Of a DNA stretch of 64,000 nucleotides, positions 3,878 to 10,165 are shown piece by piece. Below the pieces are notes generated by a model. That model had not been told where the DNA came from, made no database searches, and saw only the letters and a program-made list of their open reading frames with translations. Position numbers and translations under genes: made by a program. The stretch covers positions 541,164 through 605,163 of the forward strand of contig CAVSVU010000017.1 of the NCBI GenBank assembly GCA_963731515.1, written 5' to 3'. The DNA is from an uncultured Actinomycetes bacterium (GTDB lineage Bacteria > Actinomycetota > Thermoleophilia > Gaiellales > JAICJC01). Numbering within the stretch: position 1 is the stretch's first letter; every line of letters starts with the position of its first letter.

Positions 3878-4924
3878 TCAGCGGGACGAGAGCACGGCGT
3901 CCAGGATCCGCCCGGCCCCGAACCGCACCGGATCGTCCGCCACGAGGCCGGTATCGCGCTCGGTCTGGGCGATGGCGGCGCGGGCCGCCTCCTCGTCGAT
4001 CCGGTTCGTCTTCAGGGCCACCGCGACGACGGGGGCCGGGCGCACGTGCCGCGCCATCCGCACCTGGTCGTCGATCAGCTCGGCCAGGTCGCGGATGGGA
4101 TAGCGGGGGTCGCCGTCGATCAGCTCGCGGCCGGGCTCGTGCACGAACACCATGGCGTGCGGCGCGGAGCCGTGCAGGAGGCCGAGCGTGACGCCCGAGT
4201 AGAACGGGTGGTTGAGCGACCCCTGGCCCTCGATCCAGAGAATGGCGCCGTCGCCGCCGCGGGCGTGGCCCTCGACGACGAGCTGCTCCGCCGCGCCGGC
4301 GACGAAGTCGGAGACGACCTGGTCGACGGCGATCCCCCAGCCGGCGATCGCGATGCCCGTCTGGCCGGTCGGCACGAAGACCGAGCCGAGGCCGCGGCGG
4401 CGCGTCTCGCGGTCGAGCTCGAGGCACACGGTCATCTTCCCGAGGGCGCAGTCCGACCCGACCGTGAGGACGACGTGCGCCTTCGTCTCCAGGTTCGCCC
4501 CGGTCGGGACGTCAAGGCCGTCGGGCACCTTGCGCAGATCGCGCACCGAGACGCCCTTGCTCGCGGCGGCGCCCGCGATCTCGGCATCGTCGGAGAGGAA
4601 CTCGTGCAGGCCGCTCTCGACGTCGAGCCCGAGCTCGATCGAGCGCAGGATGCTGCGCCGGAAGACCGGCGGCAGGTGGCCGCCCGCGGGCGCGACGCCG
4701 ACCAGGAGGGTCGTCGGCCCGAGCGCCATGGCGGCATCGATGTCGGCCACGACCGGGACGTCCGACTCGAGCCCCGGCACGTGCTCGGACGCCGACGTGC
4801 CGGCGCGGCTCGAGTCGACCACGGCGACAGTGGGCGGCTCGGCGTAGCGCATCACGCCGGTGGCCGTCTTCGCGTCCTCGTCGAAGCACCCCTCGGCGAG
4901 GACGGCGTACCGCTTGGTGCTCAC
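3878..4924 (-). CDS. DUF1611 family protein (DgcN-like putative N-acetyltransferase)
   Basis: This is the C-terminal part of the long 3878..6736 ORF. VSTKRYAVLAEG...VGSDCALGKMTV...GQGSLNHPFYSGVTLGLLHG matches DUF1611 as I recall it. GTG 4924 forms a GTGA overlap with the epimerase stop. Confidence 0.7.
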   Translation of the reverse strand: MSTKRYAVLAEGCFDEDAKTATGVMRYAEPPTVAVVDSSRAGTSASEHVPGLESDVPVVADIDAAMALGPTTLLVGVAPAGGHLPPVFRRSILRSIELGLDVESGLHEFLSDDAEIAGAAASKGVSVRDLRKVPDGLDVPTGANLETKAHVVLTVGSDCALGKMTVCLELDRETRRRGLGSVFVPTGQTGIAIAGWGIAVDQVVSDFVAGAAEQLVVEGHARGGDGAILWIEGQGSLNHPFYSGVTLGLLHGSAPHAMVFVHEPGRELIDGDPRYPIRDLAELIDDQVRMARHVRPAPVVAVALKTNRIDEEAARAAIAQTERDTGLVADDPVRFGAGRILDAVLSSR

Positions 4925-5949
4925 GGCCACGGCTCCAGCGGCGTCACGCCGAGCCCGGGCCCGTCGCCGGGCACGACCCGGCCGTCCACGAGCCGGAGGC
5001 CGGTGTGGCTGTCGTTCTTGTTCAGCAGGTGGCCGTCGAGGTCGACGACGTCGACGAGCGGCGAGATCTGCGCCGCCTGGGCGATCCCGAGCGACGACTC
5101 GTTCATGCAGCCCAGCATCACCCTGAGGCCGAGGCCGCGGGCGGCGTGGATCATGCGCACGGCCTCGCGGATGCCGCCCGACTTCGTGAGCTTGATGTTC
5201 ACGCCGTCGGCGATCTCGGCGCAGCTGGCCACGTCGGGGAGCGTGTGGCAGCTCTCGTCGAGGACGATCGGGATCGAGAGCGAGCTGTCGTGCAGGCGGC
5301 AGTAGCCGGAGCGCTCCCTCGCCGGCAGCGGCTGCTCGATCAGCTCCACGCCGAGCGCCTCGAGCTCGGGCACCAGCTCGACCGTCGAGTGCACCGTCCA
5401 GGCCTCGTTCGCGTCGACCCGGATCAGCGAGTCGGGCGCCTCCGCGCGAACCGTGCGCACACGCTCCAGGTCGGCCGGCCCGCCGACCTTGATCTTGAGC
5501 GCGTGGTAGGCCGATGCGGCGGCGGCCCGCCGGGCCGTGCCCTCCACCGTGTCGATCGAGATCGTGTAGCTGGTCGGCGGCGGGGCCGGATCGAGGCCGA
5601 GGATGCGCCAGAGCGGCTGGCCGCAGATCTTCCCCAGCAGGTCGTGCAGCGCCCCGTCGACGGCGCACTTGGCGGCCATCTCGCCGGGGATCTCGCCGAC
5701 GCGGCCGAGGATCGCCCCGATCGCGAGCGGGTCGTCGCCGAGGAGGGGCTCGACCCGGCCGAGGAAGCCCATCGCGCTCTCGATCGACTCGTCGTAGTGG
5801 TTGTCGGGCGCGCCCTCGCCGTAGCCGACGAGGTCGCCGTGGCGGATCGCGACCTGCACGACCTCGGAGCTCGTGTCGGCGCTGCGGGAGATGACGAACG
5901 GCTCGGAGTATTCGAGCTCGAATACGCGGCAGGAGAGCTCCACGCGCAC
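4921..5949 (-). CDS. dipeptide epimerase / N-acyl amino acid racemase (enolase superfamily, MR/MLE branch)
   Basis: 342-aa ORF with KIKVG, RVDANEAW, LIEQPLP, VLDES and NIKLTKSGG blocks typical of L-Ala-D/L-Glu epimerase-like enzymes. Confidence 0.8.
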   Translation of the reverse strand: MRVELSCRVFELEYSEPFVISRSADTSSEVVQVAIRHGDLVGYGEGAPDNHYDESIESAMGFLGRVEPLLGDDPLAIGAILGRVGEIPGEMAAKCAVDGALHDLLGKICGQPLWRILGLDPAPPPTSYTISIDTVEGTARRAAAASAYHALKIKVGGPADLERVRTVRAEAPDSLIRVDANEAWTVHSTVELVPELEALGVELIEQPLPARERSGYCRLHDSSLSIPIVLDESCHTLPDVASCAEIADGVNIKLTKSGGIREAVRMIHAARGLGLRVMLGCMNESSLGIAQAAQISPLVDVVDLDGHLLNKNDSHTGLRLVDGRVVPGDGPGLGVTPLEPWP

Positions 5950-5987
5950 CAGCGTATCCGACCTGCGGGCTCTGCGATGATGGGTGG

Positions 5988-6614
5988 ATGGCGGCCGCGA
6001 TCCGAGACGTCGCCGAGGGGCTGTGGGCCTGGCGGGTGGACCATCCGGACTGGCACCCGGGGGCCGGCTGGCCGCGCGCCGTCACCTCCACGTGCGTCGA
6101 CTCGGGCGGGGTCGTGACGGTCGTCGATCCGCTCGATCCCGGCGCGGACGCCGGTGAGGTCTGGGCGCGGCTGGACGCACGGCCGCCGAGCGCCGCGGCG
6201 ATCCTGAAGCCCGACCACGTCCGCGACGTCGACCTGTTCGTGCGCCGGTACGGCGTGCGCGGGTACGGGCCGTACCTGTTCTGGCGCGGGAACATCCCCG
6301 AGGCCGAGCTGGAAGGGATCGAGCCCGGCAGCGAGCTGCCCGGAGGGCTCGTCGCGCTCCACGACGGGCGCGGGCGCAACGAGACGCCGCTGTGGCTGCC
6401 CGAGCAGCGGGCGCTCGTGTTCGCCGATGCCCTGACCGAGCGCGGCGGCGAGCTGCTCGTCTGGGGCACGCCGTGGCACGAGGAGCGGGTGCTCCCGGCC
6501 CTCCGGGCGATGCTCGAGCTGCCCTTCGAGCACGTGATCGTCTCGCACGGCGAGCCGGTGCACGACCGGGCCGCCTTCGAGCGCGCGCTGACGCTGCCGC
6601 CGTTCACCGAGTGA
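5988..6614 (+). CDS. MBL-fold metallo-hydrolase-like protein
   Basis: 208-aa ORF divergent from the epimerase operon. Layout resembles short MBL-fold proteins (AILKPDHVRDV..., VIVSHGEPV). Assignment is weak. Confidence 0.45.
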   Translation: MAAAIRDVAEGLWAWRVDHPDWHPGAGWPRAVTSTCVDSGGVVTVVDPLDPGADAGEVWARLDARPPSAAAILKPDHVRDVDLFVRRYGVRGYGPYLFWRGNIPEAELEGIEPGSELPGGLVALHDGRGRNETPLWLPEQRALVFADALTERGGELLVWGTPWHEERVLPALRAMLELPFEHVIVSHGEPVHDRAAFERALTLPPFTE

Positions 6615-6622
6615 CGACCCGG

Positions 6623-6628
6623 TAGAAT
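6623..6628 (+). promoter_or_regulatory. -10 box TAGAAT upstream of tRNA-Arg
   Basis: GGTAGAAT lies 15 nt upstream of the tRNA 5' end. The same GTAGAAT heptamer recurs at 18074-18080 and 39053-39059 just upstream of genes. Confidence 0.4.
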
Positions 6629-6643
6629 CCGCCCCCTGCAGAC

Positions 6644-6716
6644 GCGCCTGTAGCTCAGGGGATAGAGCGTGCGCCTCCGGAGCGCAAGGCCGTAGGTTCG
6701 ATTCCTACCAGGCGCA
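6644..6716 (+). tRNA. tRNA-Arg (anticodon CCG)
   Basis: Hand-folded cloverleaf: acceptor GCGCCTG/CAGGCGC, D stem GCTC/GAGC, anticodon stem TGCGC/GCGCA with loop CTCCGGA, variable AGGCC, T arm GTAGG-TTCGATT-CCTAC, discriminator A. Length 73 nt, no encoded CCA. Confidence 0.93.
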
Positions 6717-6721
6717 TATAT

Positions 6722-6881
6722 CTCTGCCCGCCTCATCGTCGCTCAAATGTGCTCGGCCAGGCAGGATCGGCTCGGGTAGGCCACAAACGGCACCTCGCCC
6801 GCTCTGGCCGCCTTATCGTCGCTCAAATGTGCTCGGCCAGGCGGGATCGGCTCGGTTAGGCGACAAACGGCACCTCGCCCG
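6722..6881. repeat. tandem direct repeat, 2 units of 80 bp (about 92% identical)
   Basis: Unit 1 (6722-6801) and unit 2 (6802-6881) align base for base with about 6 mismatches (ATCGTCGCTCAAATGTGCTCGGCCAGGC.GGATCGGCTCGG.TAGGC.ACAAACGGCACCTCGCCCG). The repeat starts 5 nt after the tRNA. Confidence 0.9.
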
Positions 6882-7141: not shown

Positions 7142-7358
7142 CCGTGGCCGAGGGTCGCTGCGCGTCTCCCCGTACGCGTACACGATCACAATGGGTAATA
7201 CCACCCATCCGTTCGGTTCCGCTCAAGTTACTGGCCCTTTTGTTCGAATGGAAGCGAGGCGAGTTGATTTGAGTTGAAGTAGGTAGTGGAGGACTCCGGC
7301 TCGGCTGCCCGGCACCGATGAGCCAGGCCAACACCCACGAGCCCAGGAGGGCAACTCC

Positions 7359-8480
7359 ATGAAACGCCGCATCACCCTCATCACCGCCGCGGTGGTCGCC
7401 GCTTGCGCGGTGCTCCCATCGGTCGCCTCGGCGGCCACCACCTCGACGCTCACCGCCTCGCCGGCCTCGGTCGACTTCGGCACCAGGTCGACCACCGCAC
7501 CCACCGGCCACTCGGCCACCGTGACCAACACCGGTCACCAACCCGGTGCGCTCACCACCGCTCACCTCCGACCCGGCGGCGGTCGCCATGCCGTTCACCA
7601 CGTGCGTGACACCTGCTCGGGCCGCCTCATCGCCGGCCGGCGCGACCTGCAAGCTTCGGGGTCTACGTTCGACGCCGGTTGGGCTCGGCTACGGGCCATA
7701 TGCACGGTGCCCTCACCATGCACCGGCACCGATTGACCGTGACCGCCGAGCGACACGGCCTACGTCAGCGTGCCCCTCACCGGCACGGCGGTCGACCGCC
7801 CTGCCGGTCATGCACCTCGCGTCGAGCGCGGTGAGCCGGGCGAGCTTCTACCCGCTCGTGCAAGACCGCTACCTCGACGTGACCCGCTACTCGGCGAGCT
7901 TCACCGAGCCGGCCACCGGCAAGGTGCAGGTGCTCAACTCGGTCGGCCGCGTGGTCAAGGCCTGGCCGTTCACCAACTCGCACCTCGGTCGCCGAGGATT
8001 GGCGCGGCCGCTCGACGCTCGGCACCAAGGTCAAGCCGGGCACCTACCGCTTCCGGGTCATCGCTCACGGCGTCGCCGGCACGAGCACCGGCTCGGTCTC
8101 GGGCGGCATCCGCTCGACGGTGGTACGCACCGGATGGCGAGCCGTGCATCACGCCATCGACCGCACCGGCGTCAACACCACGAGCCGGCACCGCTCGCTC
8201 ATCGTGCTTCTTCGACACGTGGGACTGGCCGACGCTTGAGCTTGACTCGTGGGGCGGCACCTGCACCGCCACGTGGCGGGTCGGCGTGCCGAACAACGCC
8301 TACGGGGTGAGCTACTCGATGCGCGCCAACCGCGACGCCGGGGCCGACCTACATGGCCCGAAGACCCACACCGCGGTGCGCACCTCTTGGGGCGTGCTCT
8401 TCACCGCCTCGACCGGCGATTGGGCCGCGCTCGACGTGCACGGGGTGCATGTCGGCTACTGGACCAAGCACCGCATCTAG
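7359..8480 (+). pseudogene. secreted Ig-like repeat protein (ASH/HYDIN-like plus FlgD-Ig-like domains), at least 5 frame breaks
   Basis: A good RBS (CAGGAGGG) precedes ATG 7359 with signal peptide MKRRITLITAAVVAACAVLPSVASA. Coding signal then moves between frames: VPLTGTAV (frame 0), SFYPLVQDRYLDVTRYSASFTEPATGKVQVLNSVGRVVKAW (frame 1), WRGRSTLGTKVKPGTYRFRVIAHG (frame 2), FFDTWDWPTLELDSWGG...YWTKHRI (frame 0). Confidence 0.7.
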
Positions 8481-8538
8481 CGAAACGGGGCACAACGCCC
8501 CGTCGGCGAGACCTGGCCGCCTCGCCCTGATGAGCTAG
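8477..8538 (+). ncRNA. hammerhead self-cleaving ribozyme motif, type II topology (stem II open); predicted cleavage between 8504 and 8505
   Basis: CUAGC|GAA|ACGGGGC-ACAAC-GCCCCGU|C|GGCGAG-ACCUGGCCGC-CUCGCC|CUGAUGA|GCUAG. The full conserved core is present: CUGAUGA, GAA, A15.1-U16.1, the GUC triplet and G10.1-C11.1. There are three compatible helices. Confidence 0.8.
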
Positions 8539-8556
8539 GCCATACACCCACGACCC
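8484..8556 (+). repeat. 73-nt repeat copy 1 (hammerhead stems III and I, CUGAUGA, GGCCAUACACCCACGACCC tail)
   Basis: Identical to 9121-9192 except for one extra A (8537). Confidence 0.9.
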
Positions 8557-8569
8557 CGAGGAGGGCAAC

Positions 8570-8586
8570 CGGGGCACGAGGCCCCG
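8570..8586 (+). other. hairpin CGGGGC-ACGAG-GCCCCG followed by UUUCG (weak terminator-like or anti-ribozyme element)
   Basis: 6-bp GC stem with 5-nt loop. Its 3' arm plus UUUCGC (8581-8592) is the exact reverse complement of GCGAAACGGGGC (8480-8491) in the hammerhead. Confidence 0.5.
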
Positions 8587-8639
8587 TTTCGCCTACGGGC
8601 GGGTGTTGGCCTCGATGCGGAAGAGCACCACCGCCGATC

Positions 8640-9167
8640 GTGAAGCAGATCGCCGCGTACCCCGGCGACATCGTGTCGGTCGACACCTACCCCACCGCCC
8701 AGCACCCTGCCGAGATGGGCGCCAAAGTCGCCCTCATGCACCGGGCCGCGCACGGCCGCCGAGTGTGCGCCGCGCTCCAGGTATACAACCGCAGCAACTC
8801 CACGAGACCACGTGTAGACGACCGCCAACCCGACGGCACCCGATCACCACCTCGGCCATCGCCGGCTCATCGTCGGCCAAGGCCACCTCGGTCATCCGCA
8901 TCACCATCACCGACACCGGCGATGCGCTCGGCCAGGTCCGGCTTGACCTGTCGCTCGACGCCGCCGCTTCCTCGCCCAAGCCCTGCTCGGCTCGGCCGGC
9001 GACGCCGAAAAGGCGGCGTGATAACCGAGCCCCAAAAGCGTTGGTACTGGCGCTGCTCGTGCGGTGCGCACAGTCGCTCGGACGGATCGCTGATCCAGTC
9101 CGACGCCGAGTGGCTCGCCGAACGGGGCACAACGCCCCGTCGGCGAGACCTGGCCGCCTCGCCCTGA
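8640..9167 (+). other. uncertain coding region between the two hammerhead-type modules (possibly a frame-broken small gene)
   Basis: High-GC3 stretches appear in two + frames (VKQIAAYPGDIVSVDTYPTAQHPAEMGAKV..., ...SVIRITITDTGDALGQVRLDLSLD..., ...KRWYWRCSCGAHSRSDGSLIQSDAEWLAE). No intact ORF with a recognisable domain. A minus-strand reading cannot be excluded. Confidence 0.25.
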
Positions 9168-9177
9168 TGAGCTGGCC
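9113..9177 (+). ncRNA. second hammerhead-like module, probably impaired as sequenced (GAAC instead of GAAAC; stem II not complementary)
   Basis: Stems III and I, GUC (9139-9141) and CUGAUGA (9164-9170) are identical to copy 1. The GAA-A15.1 run is one A short. The flanks GGCUCGCC and GCUGGCC pair poorly. Confidence 0.45.
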
Positions 9178-9192
9178 ATACACCCACGACCC
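9121..9192 (+). repeat. 72-nt repeat copy 2 of the hammerhead module
   Basis: Identical to 8484-8556 apart from a 1-nt indel. The repeat period is 637 nt. Confidence 0.9.
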
Positions 9193-9237
9193 GGTCAATC
9201 GGCGCTGATGAGCCAGGCCAGCGGTCGCGGCGCTCGG

Positions 9238-9251
9238 TTCCTACCAGGCGC
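9238..9251 (+). repeat. 14-nt direct repeat of the tRNA-Arg 3' end (TTCCTACCAGGCGC), att-like islet boundary
   Basis: Exact copy of 6702-6715 (T-arm 3' strand plus acceptor 3' strand of tRNA-Arg), same orientation, 2.5 kb downstream. Confidence 0.6.
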
Positions 9252-9411
9252 CTTTGGGCAGTCCGGGCGATTCGGCTCAACGCCCGCGAAAACCCTCGTG
9301 GTTGAGGTGAAAGTCGGCACAGGCGCGCTCCATGCCGATAGCCTTTTCGTGTGACACGACCACCGCCTGACCCGGCGCGGGGCGCGGAAGCGGCCAGGAA
9401 AACTCAGATGC

Positions 9412-9777
9412 TTGGGCGTCAAGGGCATCCTCATCGAGGCTGCAGAGCTGGGTTACATCACGCAAGTGACGTGCAGGATGCCCGAGTGCTTCTGTCCCGA
9501 GGAGCTGGGCGGTGCTCGGTACTTCGAACCTGTCACTGACGAGCTGACCGACTGGATGCCGACCCACGAGCATTTCCCACGGCCAAAGCGAGCCGGCGGC
9601 CATCGAAGTCCCGACAATGCCGTGCTTGCGCACCGCCTGTGCAACAGGATCGACTATTCGATATCCATCGGGCGGCCATACGCGAGAGATCTCGAGCGGG
9701 TCAGGAAAGCTCGCGAGGCGGCCGCCCGGAGGTCGTTTGTCGACCACGATGATCCACCACGGACAGGGGAGGGACCT
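9412..9777 (+). CDS. HNH (His-Me finger) endonuclease-like segment, in frame with the downstream ABM domain
   Basis: CRMPECFC...THEHFPRPKRAGGHRSPDNAVLAHRLCN gives a Cys cluster plus the H..H...GG...N...H..CN spacing of HNH nucleases. It has a TTG start and lower local GC. There is no stop before the ABM part. Confidence 0.45.
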
Positions 9778-10074
9778 GTGATCGCGCGGATCTGGCGGGG
9801 CGCGGTGCGCCCAGGAGATGCGGACGAGTACGCCGCCTACGTTCGGGACACGGGCGTCGACCAGTACAAGTCGACGCCGGGGAACCGGGGGGCATGGATC
9901 CTCCGCCGGCCTGCGGGGGACATGACGGAGATCGTCGCGTTCTCGCTCTGGGAGAGCATGGACGCCGTCCGCGCGTTCGCCGGCGATGACCCGTCACGGG
10001 CGGTCTACTACCCCGAGGACGATCGCTTCCTGGTCGAGCGCAGCGACGTCGTCGAGCACTACGAGGCCGACTGA
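9778..10074 (+). CDS. antibiotic-biosynthesis-monooxygenase (ABM/Dabb)-like small protein
   Basis: VIARIWRGAVRPGDADEYAAYVRDTG...EIVAFSLWESMDAVRAFAG is a typical ABM ferredoxin-like fold sequence. GTG 9778 is preceded by GGGGAGGGA. Confidence 0.6.
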   Translation: MIARIWRGAVRPGDADEYAAYVRDTGVDQYKSTPGNRGAWILRRPAGDMTEIVAFSLWESMDAVRAFAGDDPSRAVYYPEDDRFLVERSDVVEHYEAD

Positions 10075-10165
10075 TCCGACGCGACGGCGCCCACGGCGAG
10101 GCTCGCGAAAGGGAGGCGCGCGCTCGGGTGATACGGGCGCAGCGCTGAACAGGCCGCAATACCCG

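Follow-up and report, generated by a model that had tools for sequence, protein, structure and literature searches.

A probable hammerhead relic downstream of a sound type II hammerhead in a tRNA-adjacent island of an uncultured actinobacterium

Two hammerhead-like elements that lie 637 nt apart on the same strand raise the question of whether both are able to cleave, in which case the RNA between them would be released, or whether one of them has ceased to be a ribozyme. They are located in a 64-kb stretch of DNA, referred to here in its entirety as the window, which is chromosomal DNA of 72% GC and carries an island extending from a tRNA-Arg gene to approximately 10.1 kb. The downstream element (copy 2) had been described in an earlier note as a hammerhead-derived module, defective as sequenced, in the same orientation as a good hammerhead upstream (copy 1), and on these points our analysis agrees. 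Specifically, positions 9121-9192 (72 nt) repeat positions 8484-8556 (73 nt) with the single exception of A8537, which is missing from copy 2 between GAGCT and GGCCA. An exact repeat of 72 nt is far beyond chance. The landmarks given for copy 2 are likewise correct, namely the GUC at 9139-9141, the CUGAUGA at 9164-9170, and a length of 637 nt for 8505-9141. Read without gaps, the likeness of the copies runs 7 nt further upstream, where copy 1 has CTAGCGAAAC and copy 2 has CTCGCCGAAC. A search of the 64-kb window with R1, a custom model, returned no further copy of the unit.

Copy 1 (8476-8548, plus strand) is a sound type II hammerhead and is predicted to be active. The Rfam Hammerhead_II model (RF02276) matches it over 8478-8544 with 39.1 bits, against a gathering threshold of 37 bits. 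R1 assigns it 75.1 bits, although all R1 scores for the copies of the window and of its relative L065 (described below) are inflated, as both copy 1 sequences are members of the R1 seed and the copy 2 sequences closely resemble them. The element has the full consensus and topology of RF02276. Stem II is formed by UAGC (8478-8481) and GCUA (8534-8537), and stem III (8485-8503) and stem I (GGCGAG at 8505-8510 with CUCGCC at 8521-8526) are both closed by loops. The core consists of CGAAA and CUGAUGA, and the site is GUC, with cleavage predicted after C8504. A pseudoknot of 5 bp joins UGGCC of loop I (8513-8517) to GGCCA of the 3′ tail (8538-8542), which is the tertiary contact described for type II hammerheads (PMC3088659). 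The loop and pseudoknot motifs (ACUGGCCGCC with AGGCCA) are near-identical in viral contigs such as L014, L056 and L005. The TAG stop of the preceding gene, gene A, sits inside stem II (8478-8480). In an alignment of 25 members (the window, one relative and 23 viral contigs), stems I and II and the pseudoknot covaried more strongly than in any of 500 shuffles or any slid control; stem III is fixed by the search pattern and is therefore uninformative in this respect. A candidate hammerhead on the minus strand at 8526-8596 was rejected, with 14.8 bits and no CUGAUGA.

Inferences from relatives are drawn here from one genome. A pattern scan of species-representative genomes gave eight loci, with L065 as the sole true relative and the other seven as chance matches without a hammerhead. 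Two metagenome scans yielded no matches and then nine chance matches, such that L065 is the only true additional copy of the unit in the genome and metagenome pattern scans. The source of L065 (extended as L079) is the MAG "uncultured Actinomycetes bacterium MFD00031.bin.2.10", in which it belongs to a contig of 338 kb. Synteny with the window is preserved at 90-97% identity, both hammerhead copies occupy the same positions, and the DNA beyond copy 2 is shared. In the orientation of the window, its order is tRNA-Arg, an extra 1-kb insert, gene A, copy 1, gene B, a middle hammerhead, gene C and copy 2. The cleavage sites of these three hammerheads are spaced by 491 and 396 nt, and the interval between copies 1 and 2 is 887 nt, as opposed to 637 nt of different content in the window. 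Copy 1 of L065 scores 45.5 bits in Rfam. Its stem I reads GGCAGG/CCUGCC where the window has GGCGAG/CUCGCC, which amounts to two compensatory pair changes, and its U7, the one free core position, is changed to C. The middle hammerhead (R1 32.3 bits) has a covarying stem III (GCCCGC/GCGGGC). In the same element (L065 1840-1913, minus strand), an additional A follows A9 ahead of stem II (CUGACGA-A-GCC), and the site is CUC.

Copy 2 (9114-9185, plus strand) is a full-length paralogue with a broken core. RF02276 places it at 9116-9180 with 29.9 bits, below the threshold of 37 and with a deletion in the GAAA strand, and R1 gives an inflated 55.7 bits. In common with the family it has stems I and III, the GUC site and the pseudoknot partners (9150-9154 and 9174-9178, with a linker 1 nt shorter), and the C3 U4 G5 A6 N7 G8 A9 strand is intact as CUGAUGA. 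Everything 3′ of position 13 is identical to the good ribozyme. It is the G12 A13 A14 strand that is altered: the window reads C-C-G-A-A-C, which represents either G12C together with A13G or the absence of one A. In the ungapped reading, C9119 and G9120 occupy positions 12 and 13, A14 is kept, A15.1 and U16.1 correspond to A9122 and U9140, and C17 (C9141) stands at the cleavage site; the gapped reading loses A14 or A15.1. The earlier note had favored the second of these, with A15.1 lost unless an A had been dropped. A defect in the core is indeed present, but both L065 and the alignment indicate substitutions rather than a deletion. Copy 2 of L065 reads CTCGCCAAAC (CCAAAC) at the site of CTCGCCGAAC in the window, which is G12C alone. 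Over a longer stretch the two genomes (GGCTCGCCAAACGGGG in L065, GGCTCGCCGAACGGGG in the window) are one substitution apart, with no indel. MAFFT itself aligns the copy 2 core to copy 1 gap-free, as CTCGCC(A/G)AAC. The gap-free CCAAAC of the relative thus supports substitution over a lost A, and the defect of copy 2 can be read as G12C in both genomes, with A13G in addition in the window.

With respect to catalysis, G12 is a strictly conserved core position and is regarded as the general base of the hammerhead reaction. Under published criteria any change at G12, A13 or A14 disqualifies a hammerhead candidate, and position 12 is not among the reported rare natural core variants that are tolerated with some activity retained (PMC3088659). 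The flanks of stem II (GGCUCGCC/GCUGGCC) had also been thought to pair poorly, a view that does not survive the ungapped reading. Homology then spans the entire ribozyme and takes in the 5′ strand of stem II, with UCGC facing GCU(A) in a mostly paired stem (C9118-G9171 and G9117-C9172, then a mismatch, in the window; three of four pairs in L065).

An assembly error is an unlikely source of the copy 2 defect. L065 was assembled independently, is also without a canonical core, and differs from the window by a substitution. Were CGAAAC the true sequence in both genomes, two independent 1-nt deletions would have had to fall within 4 nt in two assemblies, and on a rough estimate one substitution at 3-10% divergence would be far likelier than two coincident errors. 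Both assemblies do contain 1-nt indels even in housekeeping genes, and an error in the core sequence is conceivable; it is precisely at the critical position that the two genomes disagree (G versus A). Copy 2 is nonetheless most likely a hammerhead relic, and not a mis-sequenced ribozyme.

The predicted folding of copy 2 was also found to disfavor the hammerhead. Its minimum free energy (MFE) structure (-42.8 kcal/mol, z = -6.6) contains an alternative 14-bp hairpin at 9114-9147 (plus strand), in which CUCGCCGA pairs with UCGGCGAG, stacked on stem III and with one bulged A, and a second hairpin is predicted at 9151-9178. The flank CUCGCC(G) of copy 2 is fully complementary to (C)GGCGAG, the 5′ strand of stem I, and each of the three 5′-strand differences from copy 1 (A to C, G12 to C, and A13 to G) adds to the Watson–Crick pairing of the hairpin. 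Such changes fit either a quasi-palindrome template-switch mutation or selection for the hairpin. For copy 2 of L065, the MFE is -37.1 kcal/mol (z = -4.8). With neither the pseudoknot nor tertiary contacts counted, the hammerhead fold of copy 2 lies 20.0 kcal/mol above the MFE in the window as sequenced and 14.3 kcal/mol above it in L065, the corresponding gap being 3.6-5.7 kcal/mol for the two copy 1 sequences. The uncounted GC-rich pseudoknot could plausibly close the gap of copy 1, but not that of copy 2. Restoring GAAAC, an experiment proposed on the supposition of a dropped A, would probably bring no rescue: with one or both of the missing A's put back, the computed hammerhead fold stays 20-22 kcal/mol behind the MFE, and stem II is left at one pair. 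Core chemistry and folding thus both argue against activity of copy 2.

Taken together, these observations make it probable, on the basis of sequence comparison and fold prediction, that copy 2, a paralogue of the type II hammerhead located 637 nt upstream, has decayed and is non-catalytic, and that the two are part of a series of intergenic modules. A module would comprise, in order, a stop codon within stem II, a hammerhead with a loop I–3′ tail pseudoknot, a leader with a ribosome-binding site, and the next start codon, and the modules would separate small lineage-specific genes in the island directly 3′ of tRNA-Arg. By analogy with the family literature, they presumably cut a polycistronic transcript into single-gene RNAs, leaving a hairpin at each new end. 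The 5′ strand of copy 2 would then have changed from CUAGCGAAAC to CUCGCC(A/G)AAC, with loss of G12 and, in the window, of A13 as well. The same change would have made the flank complementary to the 5′ strand of stem I, such that the RNA would lock into a long hairpin in place of a three-way junction, and cleavage would come from copy 1 alone, after C8504. Across the repeat, the L065 copies share only about 82% identity, whereas those of the window are near-identical, which points to a recent conversion of copy 1. Judging from these two genomes, gene conversion or recombination of copy 1 with a copy 2-type sequence would best account for the near-exact identity. Copy 2 would accordingly offer a natural example of the death of a hammerhead, in which loss of G12 is coupled to the capture of stem I by a flank, and no sequencing error is needed to explain its flaw.

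The arrangement in the window fits a kind of hammerhead cluster that has been described since 2011, with one member probably dead. In prophage regions it is common for several hammerheads to flank a single gene or a short block of genes, and a suggested role is the processing of long transcripts into gene-length RNAs (Perreault et al. 2011, PMC3088659); the ORFs so flanked are small and non-conserved (de la Pena 2017, PMC6155905). Among 58 viral loci examined, all sharing the stem III studied here, 22 have at least two copies on the same strand, at a median spacing of 391 nt (range 217-4576 nt). The largest two of these clusters comprise 11 type II hammerheads within 4 kb (L002, 2813-6751, minus strand) and seven in L045 (3051-6229, minus strand), with intervals of 250-1100 nt, and all 18 copies have the canonical core. 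L045 is high in GC (0.72-0.77), as are actinobacterial phages. A stop codon lies within or beside the 5′ strand of stem II in many viral copies among those listed, and in several a motif resembling a ribosome-binding site follows.

The island shows the same pattern of at least two same-strand hammerheads, approximately 0.2-2 kb apart, around small ORFs, here made up of copy 1, the copy 2 relic and fragments. It resembles the prophage clusters in strand, in spacings of a few hundred nucleotides, in its small non-conserved ORFs, in the stop codon before and the ribosome-binding site after the ribozyme, and in the adjoining tRNA site. It is unlike them in being a chromosomal island of an uncultured high-GC actinobacterium with no integrase or phage structural genes nearby, one probably dead member and several fragments. 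Relative to RF02276, copy 2 departs in its C at position 12 (and G at 13 in the window), in its subthreshold score and in its predicted misfolding into a hairpin.

A different outcome had been entertained in the earlier note, in which copy 2 is active, or its defects are assembly errors, and the two copies excise a 637-nt RNA with 5′-OH and cyclic-phosphate ends that could be ligated and might even be circular. We regard this as very improbable. Indels of 1 nt in conserved genes of both the window and L065 do allow the missing linker A, which is present in L065, to be an error, the 3′ part of copy 2 is that of a good ribozyme, and a stem II as short as 1-2 bp occurs in the hammerhead family (PMC3088659). 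Excision would require two active sites, however, and only one is credible; with only copy 1 expected to cleave, no 637-nt unit would be released. A true CGAAAC in both genomes would again call for the two nearby deletions, L065 also being without the canonical core and differing from the window by a substitution, and the A-restored RNA would still prefer the hairpin. The interval itself differs between the genomes: the 637 nt of the window contain part of a gene, a small gene that is broken and an ORF of 49 codons that is doubtful, and the 887 nt of L065 contain a third hammerhead. In bacterial hammerhead clusters, moreover, circular or spliced products have been sought and none detected (PMC3088659). 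Hammerhead-bounded circular RNAs are known from eukaryotes, among them the retrozymes. Retrozymes need two active hammerheads, of type III in plants and of type I in animals, and have many genomic copies and detected circular RNA (PMC7229834, PMC7761336), and the present locus is like them in having two hammerhead-bearing direct repeats 600-1000 nt apart around largely non-coding sequence. It is unlike them in that one repeat has a broken core in both genomes, the two relatives have different intervals, and the searches turned up no second locus. The two-site reading, and with it the circular RNA, is not supported.

If copy 2 does not cleave, it might still have been retained or remodelled as a stable structured element, with the double hairpin (9114-9147 and 9151-9178) acting in 3′ end formation, stability or termination of the island transcript, or as the 3′ end of the overlapping ORF D. 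We consider this unlikely, albeit worth weighing. The pairing gained through each of the three 5′-strand changes, the low z scores in both genomes and the conserved position are all in its favor. Three substitutions are, however, a tiny sample, and one quasi-palindrome template switch would give the same pattern without selection. The surrounding DNA is in any case 96.8% identical, which renders conservation uninformative, and copy 2 is followed by no U-tract, no terminator was called there, and the differences in ORF D are all non-synonymous. A more speculative proposal, and in our view a doubtful one, is that the hammerhead-plus-leader modules act as joints for the exchange and homogenisation of small gene cassettes in the tRNA-adjacent island, with copy 2 an ex-ribozyme turned into a structural hairpin in one quasi-palindrome step or by selection. 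The two 90-97% identical genomes do differ by a cassette swap bounded exactly by hammerhead modules, and the locus offers a small comparative case, from an uncultured actinobacterium, of ribozyme modules that coincide with the edges of exchanged gene cassettes. A cassette route at the RNA level, through cleavage, ligation and reverse flow, receives no support. Finally, the 73-nt direct repeats could in principle be a target or attachment duplication made by a small mobile element, with 564 nt between them. They flank a poorly coding segment beside a tRNA gene that carries att-like repeats in L065. This origin is hardly credible and was rejected on the synteny with L065, where copies with the same flanks are approximately 82% identical and enclose a different interior with a third hammerhead, so that the copies predate any such insertion. 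Partial copies are found also at 7255-7358 and 9198-9226. Neither an integrase nor a transposase was noted among the ORFs and Pfam matches examined around the island, and the interval would in any case be too short for such a gene.

Returning to the probable set of intergenic modules, we examined the gene content of the island in order along the plus strand. The tRNA-Arg (CCG) gene occupies 6644-6716 (Rfam 69.7 bits, also called by ARAGORN), and the island begins directly after it. At least the final 22 nt of the tRNA-Arg occur twice in L065 (4066-4087 and 5141-5162, minus strand), the second time 1,075 nt downstream of the first; these repeats bracket an NmrA-like gene that is missing from the window and resemble an att scar. 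From the sequence, the tRNA-Arg gene appears to mark an integration hot spot. Directly 3′ of the gene, the window has an 80-nt unit in tandem duplicate (6722-6881, 94% identity) that is single in L065. In favor of a prophage context are the tRNA-adjacent island, the att-like repeat of L065 and one weak PHROG match; against it, no integrase, transposase or phage structural genes were seen among the ORFs and Pfam matches examined around the island, and a blastn search of 7300-10100 against phage and plasmid collections gave nothing relevant. A promoter and terminator scan found nothing.

A degenerate hammerhead remnant at 7255-7358 (direct repeat D12, R1 13.9 bits) retains a 3′ half (CCGAUGAG-CCA-GGCCA) followed by the leader ACACCCACGAGCCCAGGAGGGCAAC. 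It has C in place of U4, is without the GAAA/stem III half, and is conserved at L065 3528-3609. Its leader carries a ribosome-binding site just before ATG 7359, the start of gene A. The general form of the leader, ACACCCACGA(G/C)CC..AGGAGGGCAAC, follows hammerheads and ends at the next start codon, which is ATG 7359 in the window and the ATG of gene B in L065; a viral scan for the leader motif gave no matches. Gene A (7359-8480) encodes a secreted Ig-like (DUF1573-like) protein and is frame-broken in the window, as judged from third-position GC, which changes frame at least three times, and from comparison with L065, which reveals indels of 1, 2, 7 and 9 nt. The 9-nt indel is an insertion, and those of 1, 2 and 7 nt shift the frame. 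The version of gene A in L065 matches DUF1573 at 7e-7, and a homologue search with gene A returned the L065 genome itself, together with one distant match in the gene A and gene C searches.

After copy 1, alignment with L065 identifies, at 8549-8569 (plus strand), a conserved leader with a ribosome-binding site (GAGGAGGG). In L065 the equivalent leader runs into the ATG of gene B, a 130-aa lipoprotein with a weak match (1e-6) to the phage moron lipoprotein phrog_6148 (BLIP-like). Its counterpart in the window is orphaned, as no start codon comes next. Gene B and the middle hammerhead are replaced there by an unrelated stretch of 236 nt, segment X (8571-8806, plus strand), which has no alignment to L065 and no family matches in Pfam or PHROG. 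Segment X contains a hairpin (8570-8586) and a fragmentary ORF of 63 codons (8640-8830) whose third-position GC is good. At 8570-8592 the hairpin CGGGGCACGAGGCCCCG, absent from L065, resembles a hammerhead stem III, and the GTTTCGC that follows it is the exact complement of GCGAAAC (8480-8486) in the core of copy 1. It could be a relic, a terminator-like hairpin or a pairing that sequesters the ribozyme.

The remnant of gene C follows at 8812-9024 (plus strand). In L065 this is an orphan gene of 70 aa, and a homologue search found its protein only in the L065 genome; genes B and C are also carried by a 921-nt Logan contig from run ERR12037367. In the window codon 2 is TAG (8815-8817), and three 1-nt deletions are present. 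ORF D (9018-9167, plus strand) is a possible but doubtful gene of 49 codons whose GTG start overlaps the gene C stop and which reads through copy 2 to a TGA inside CUGAUGA; it has two differences between the window and L065, both non-synonymous. Beyond copy 2 lies a further 3′-half hammerhead remnant, GCGCUGAUGAG-CCA-GGCCA (9198-9226, plus strand; repeat D2, R1 9.4 bits), which is conserved in L065. Apart from the DUF1573 match of gene A and the weak match of gene B in L065, nothing informative came from Pfam and PHROG searches with the ORFs that lie around the copies or between them. As far as can be read from the two sequences, the island of the window is decaying as a whole, with gene A frame-shifted, gene B and the middle hammerhead lost, and gene C carrying a nonsense codon.

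With regard to sequence quality outside the island, comparison of window positions 4001-6717 with L065 gave five deletions and two insertions in 2.7 kb, even inside conserved housekeeping genes, and many genes are split in the L079 gene calls. Both genomes are probably long-read MAG assemblies with residual indel errors. Further downstream, an ORF at 9412-10074 (plus strand) has an N-terminal half that is HNH-like, joined to a domain of the ABM/HmoA-like type. The HNH-like gene was considered as hammerhead-associated and rejected, its homologues occurring in unrelated contexts and the three examined with the model having no hammerhead beside them. Its N-terminal half, which has no Pfam family of its own, belongs to a very widespread family of proteins of 127-132 aa, with 1087 matches and, at identities of 80-93%, unusual conservation.
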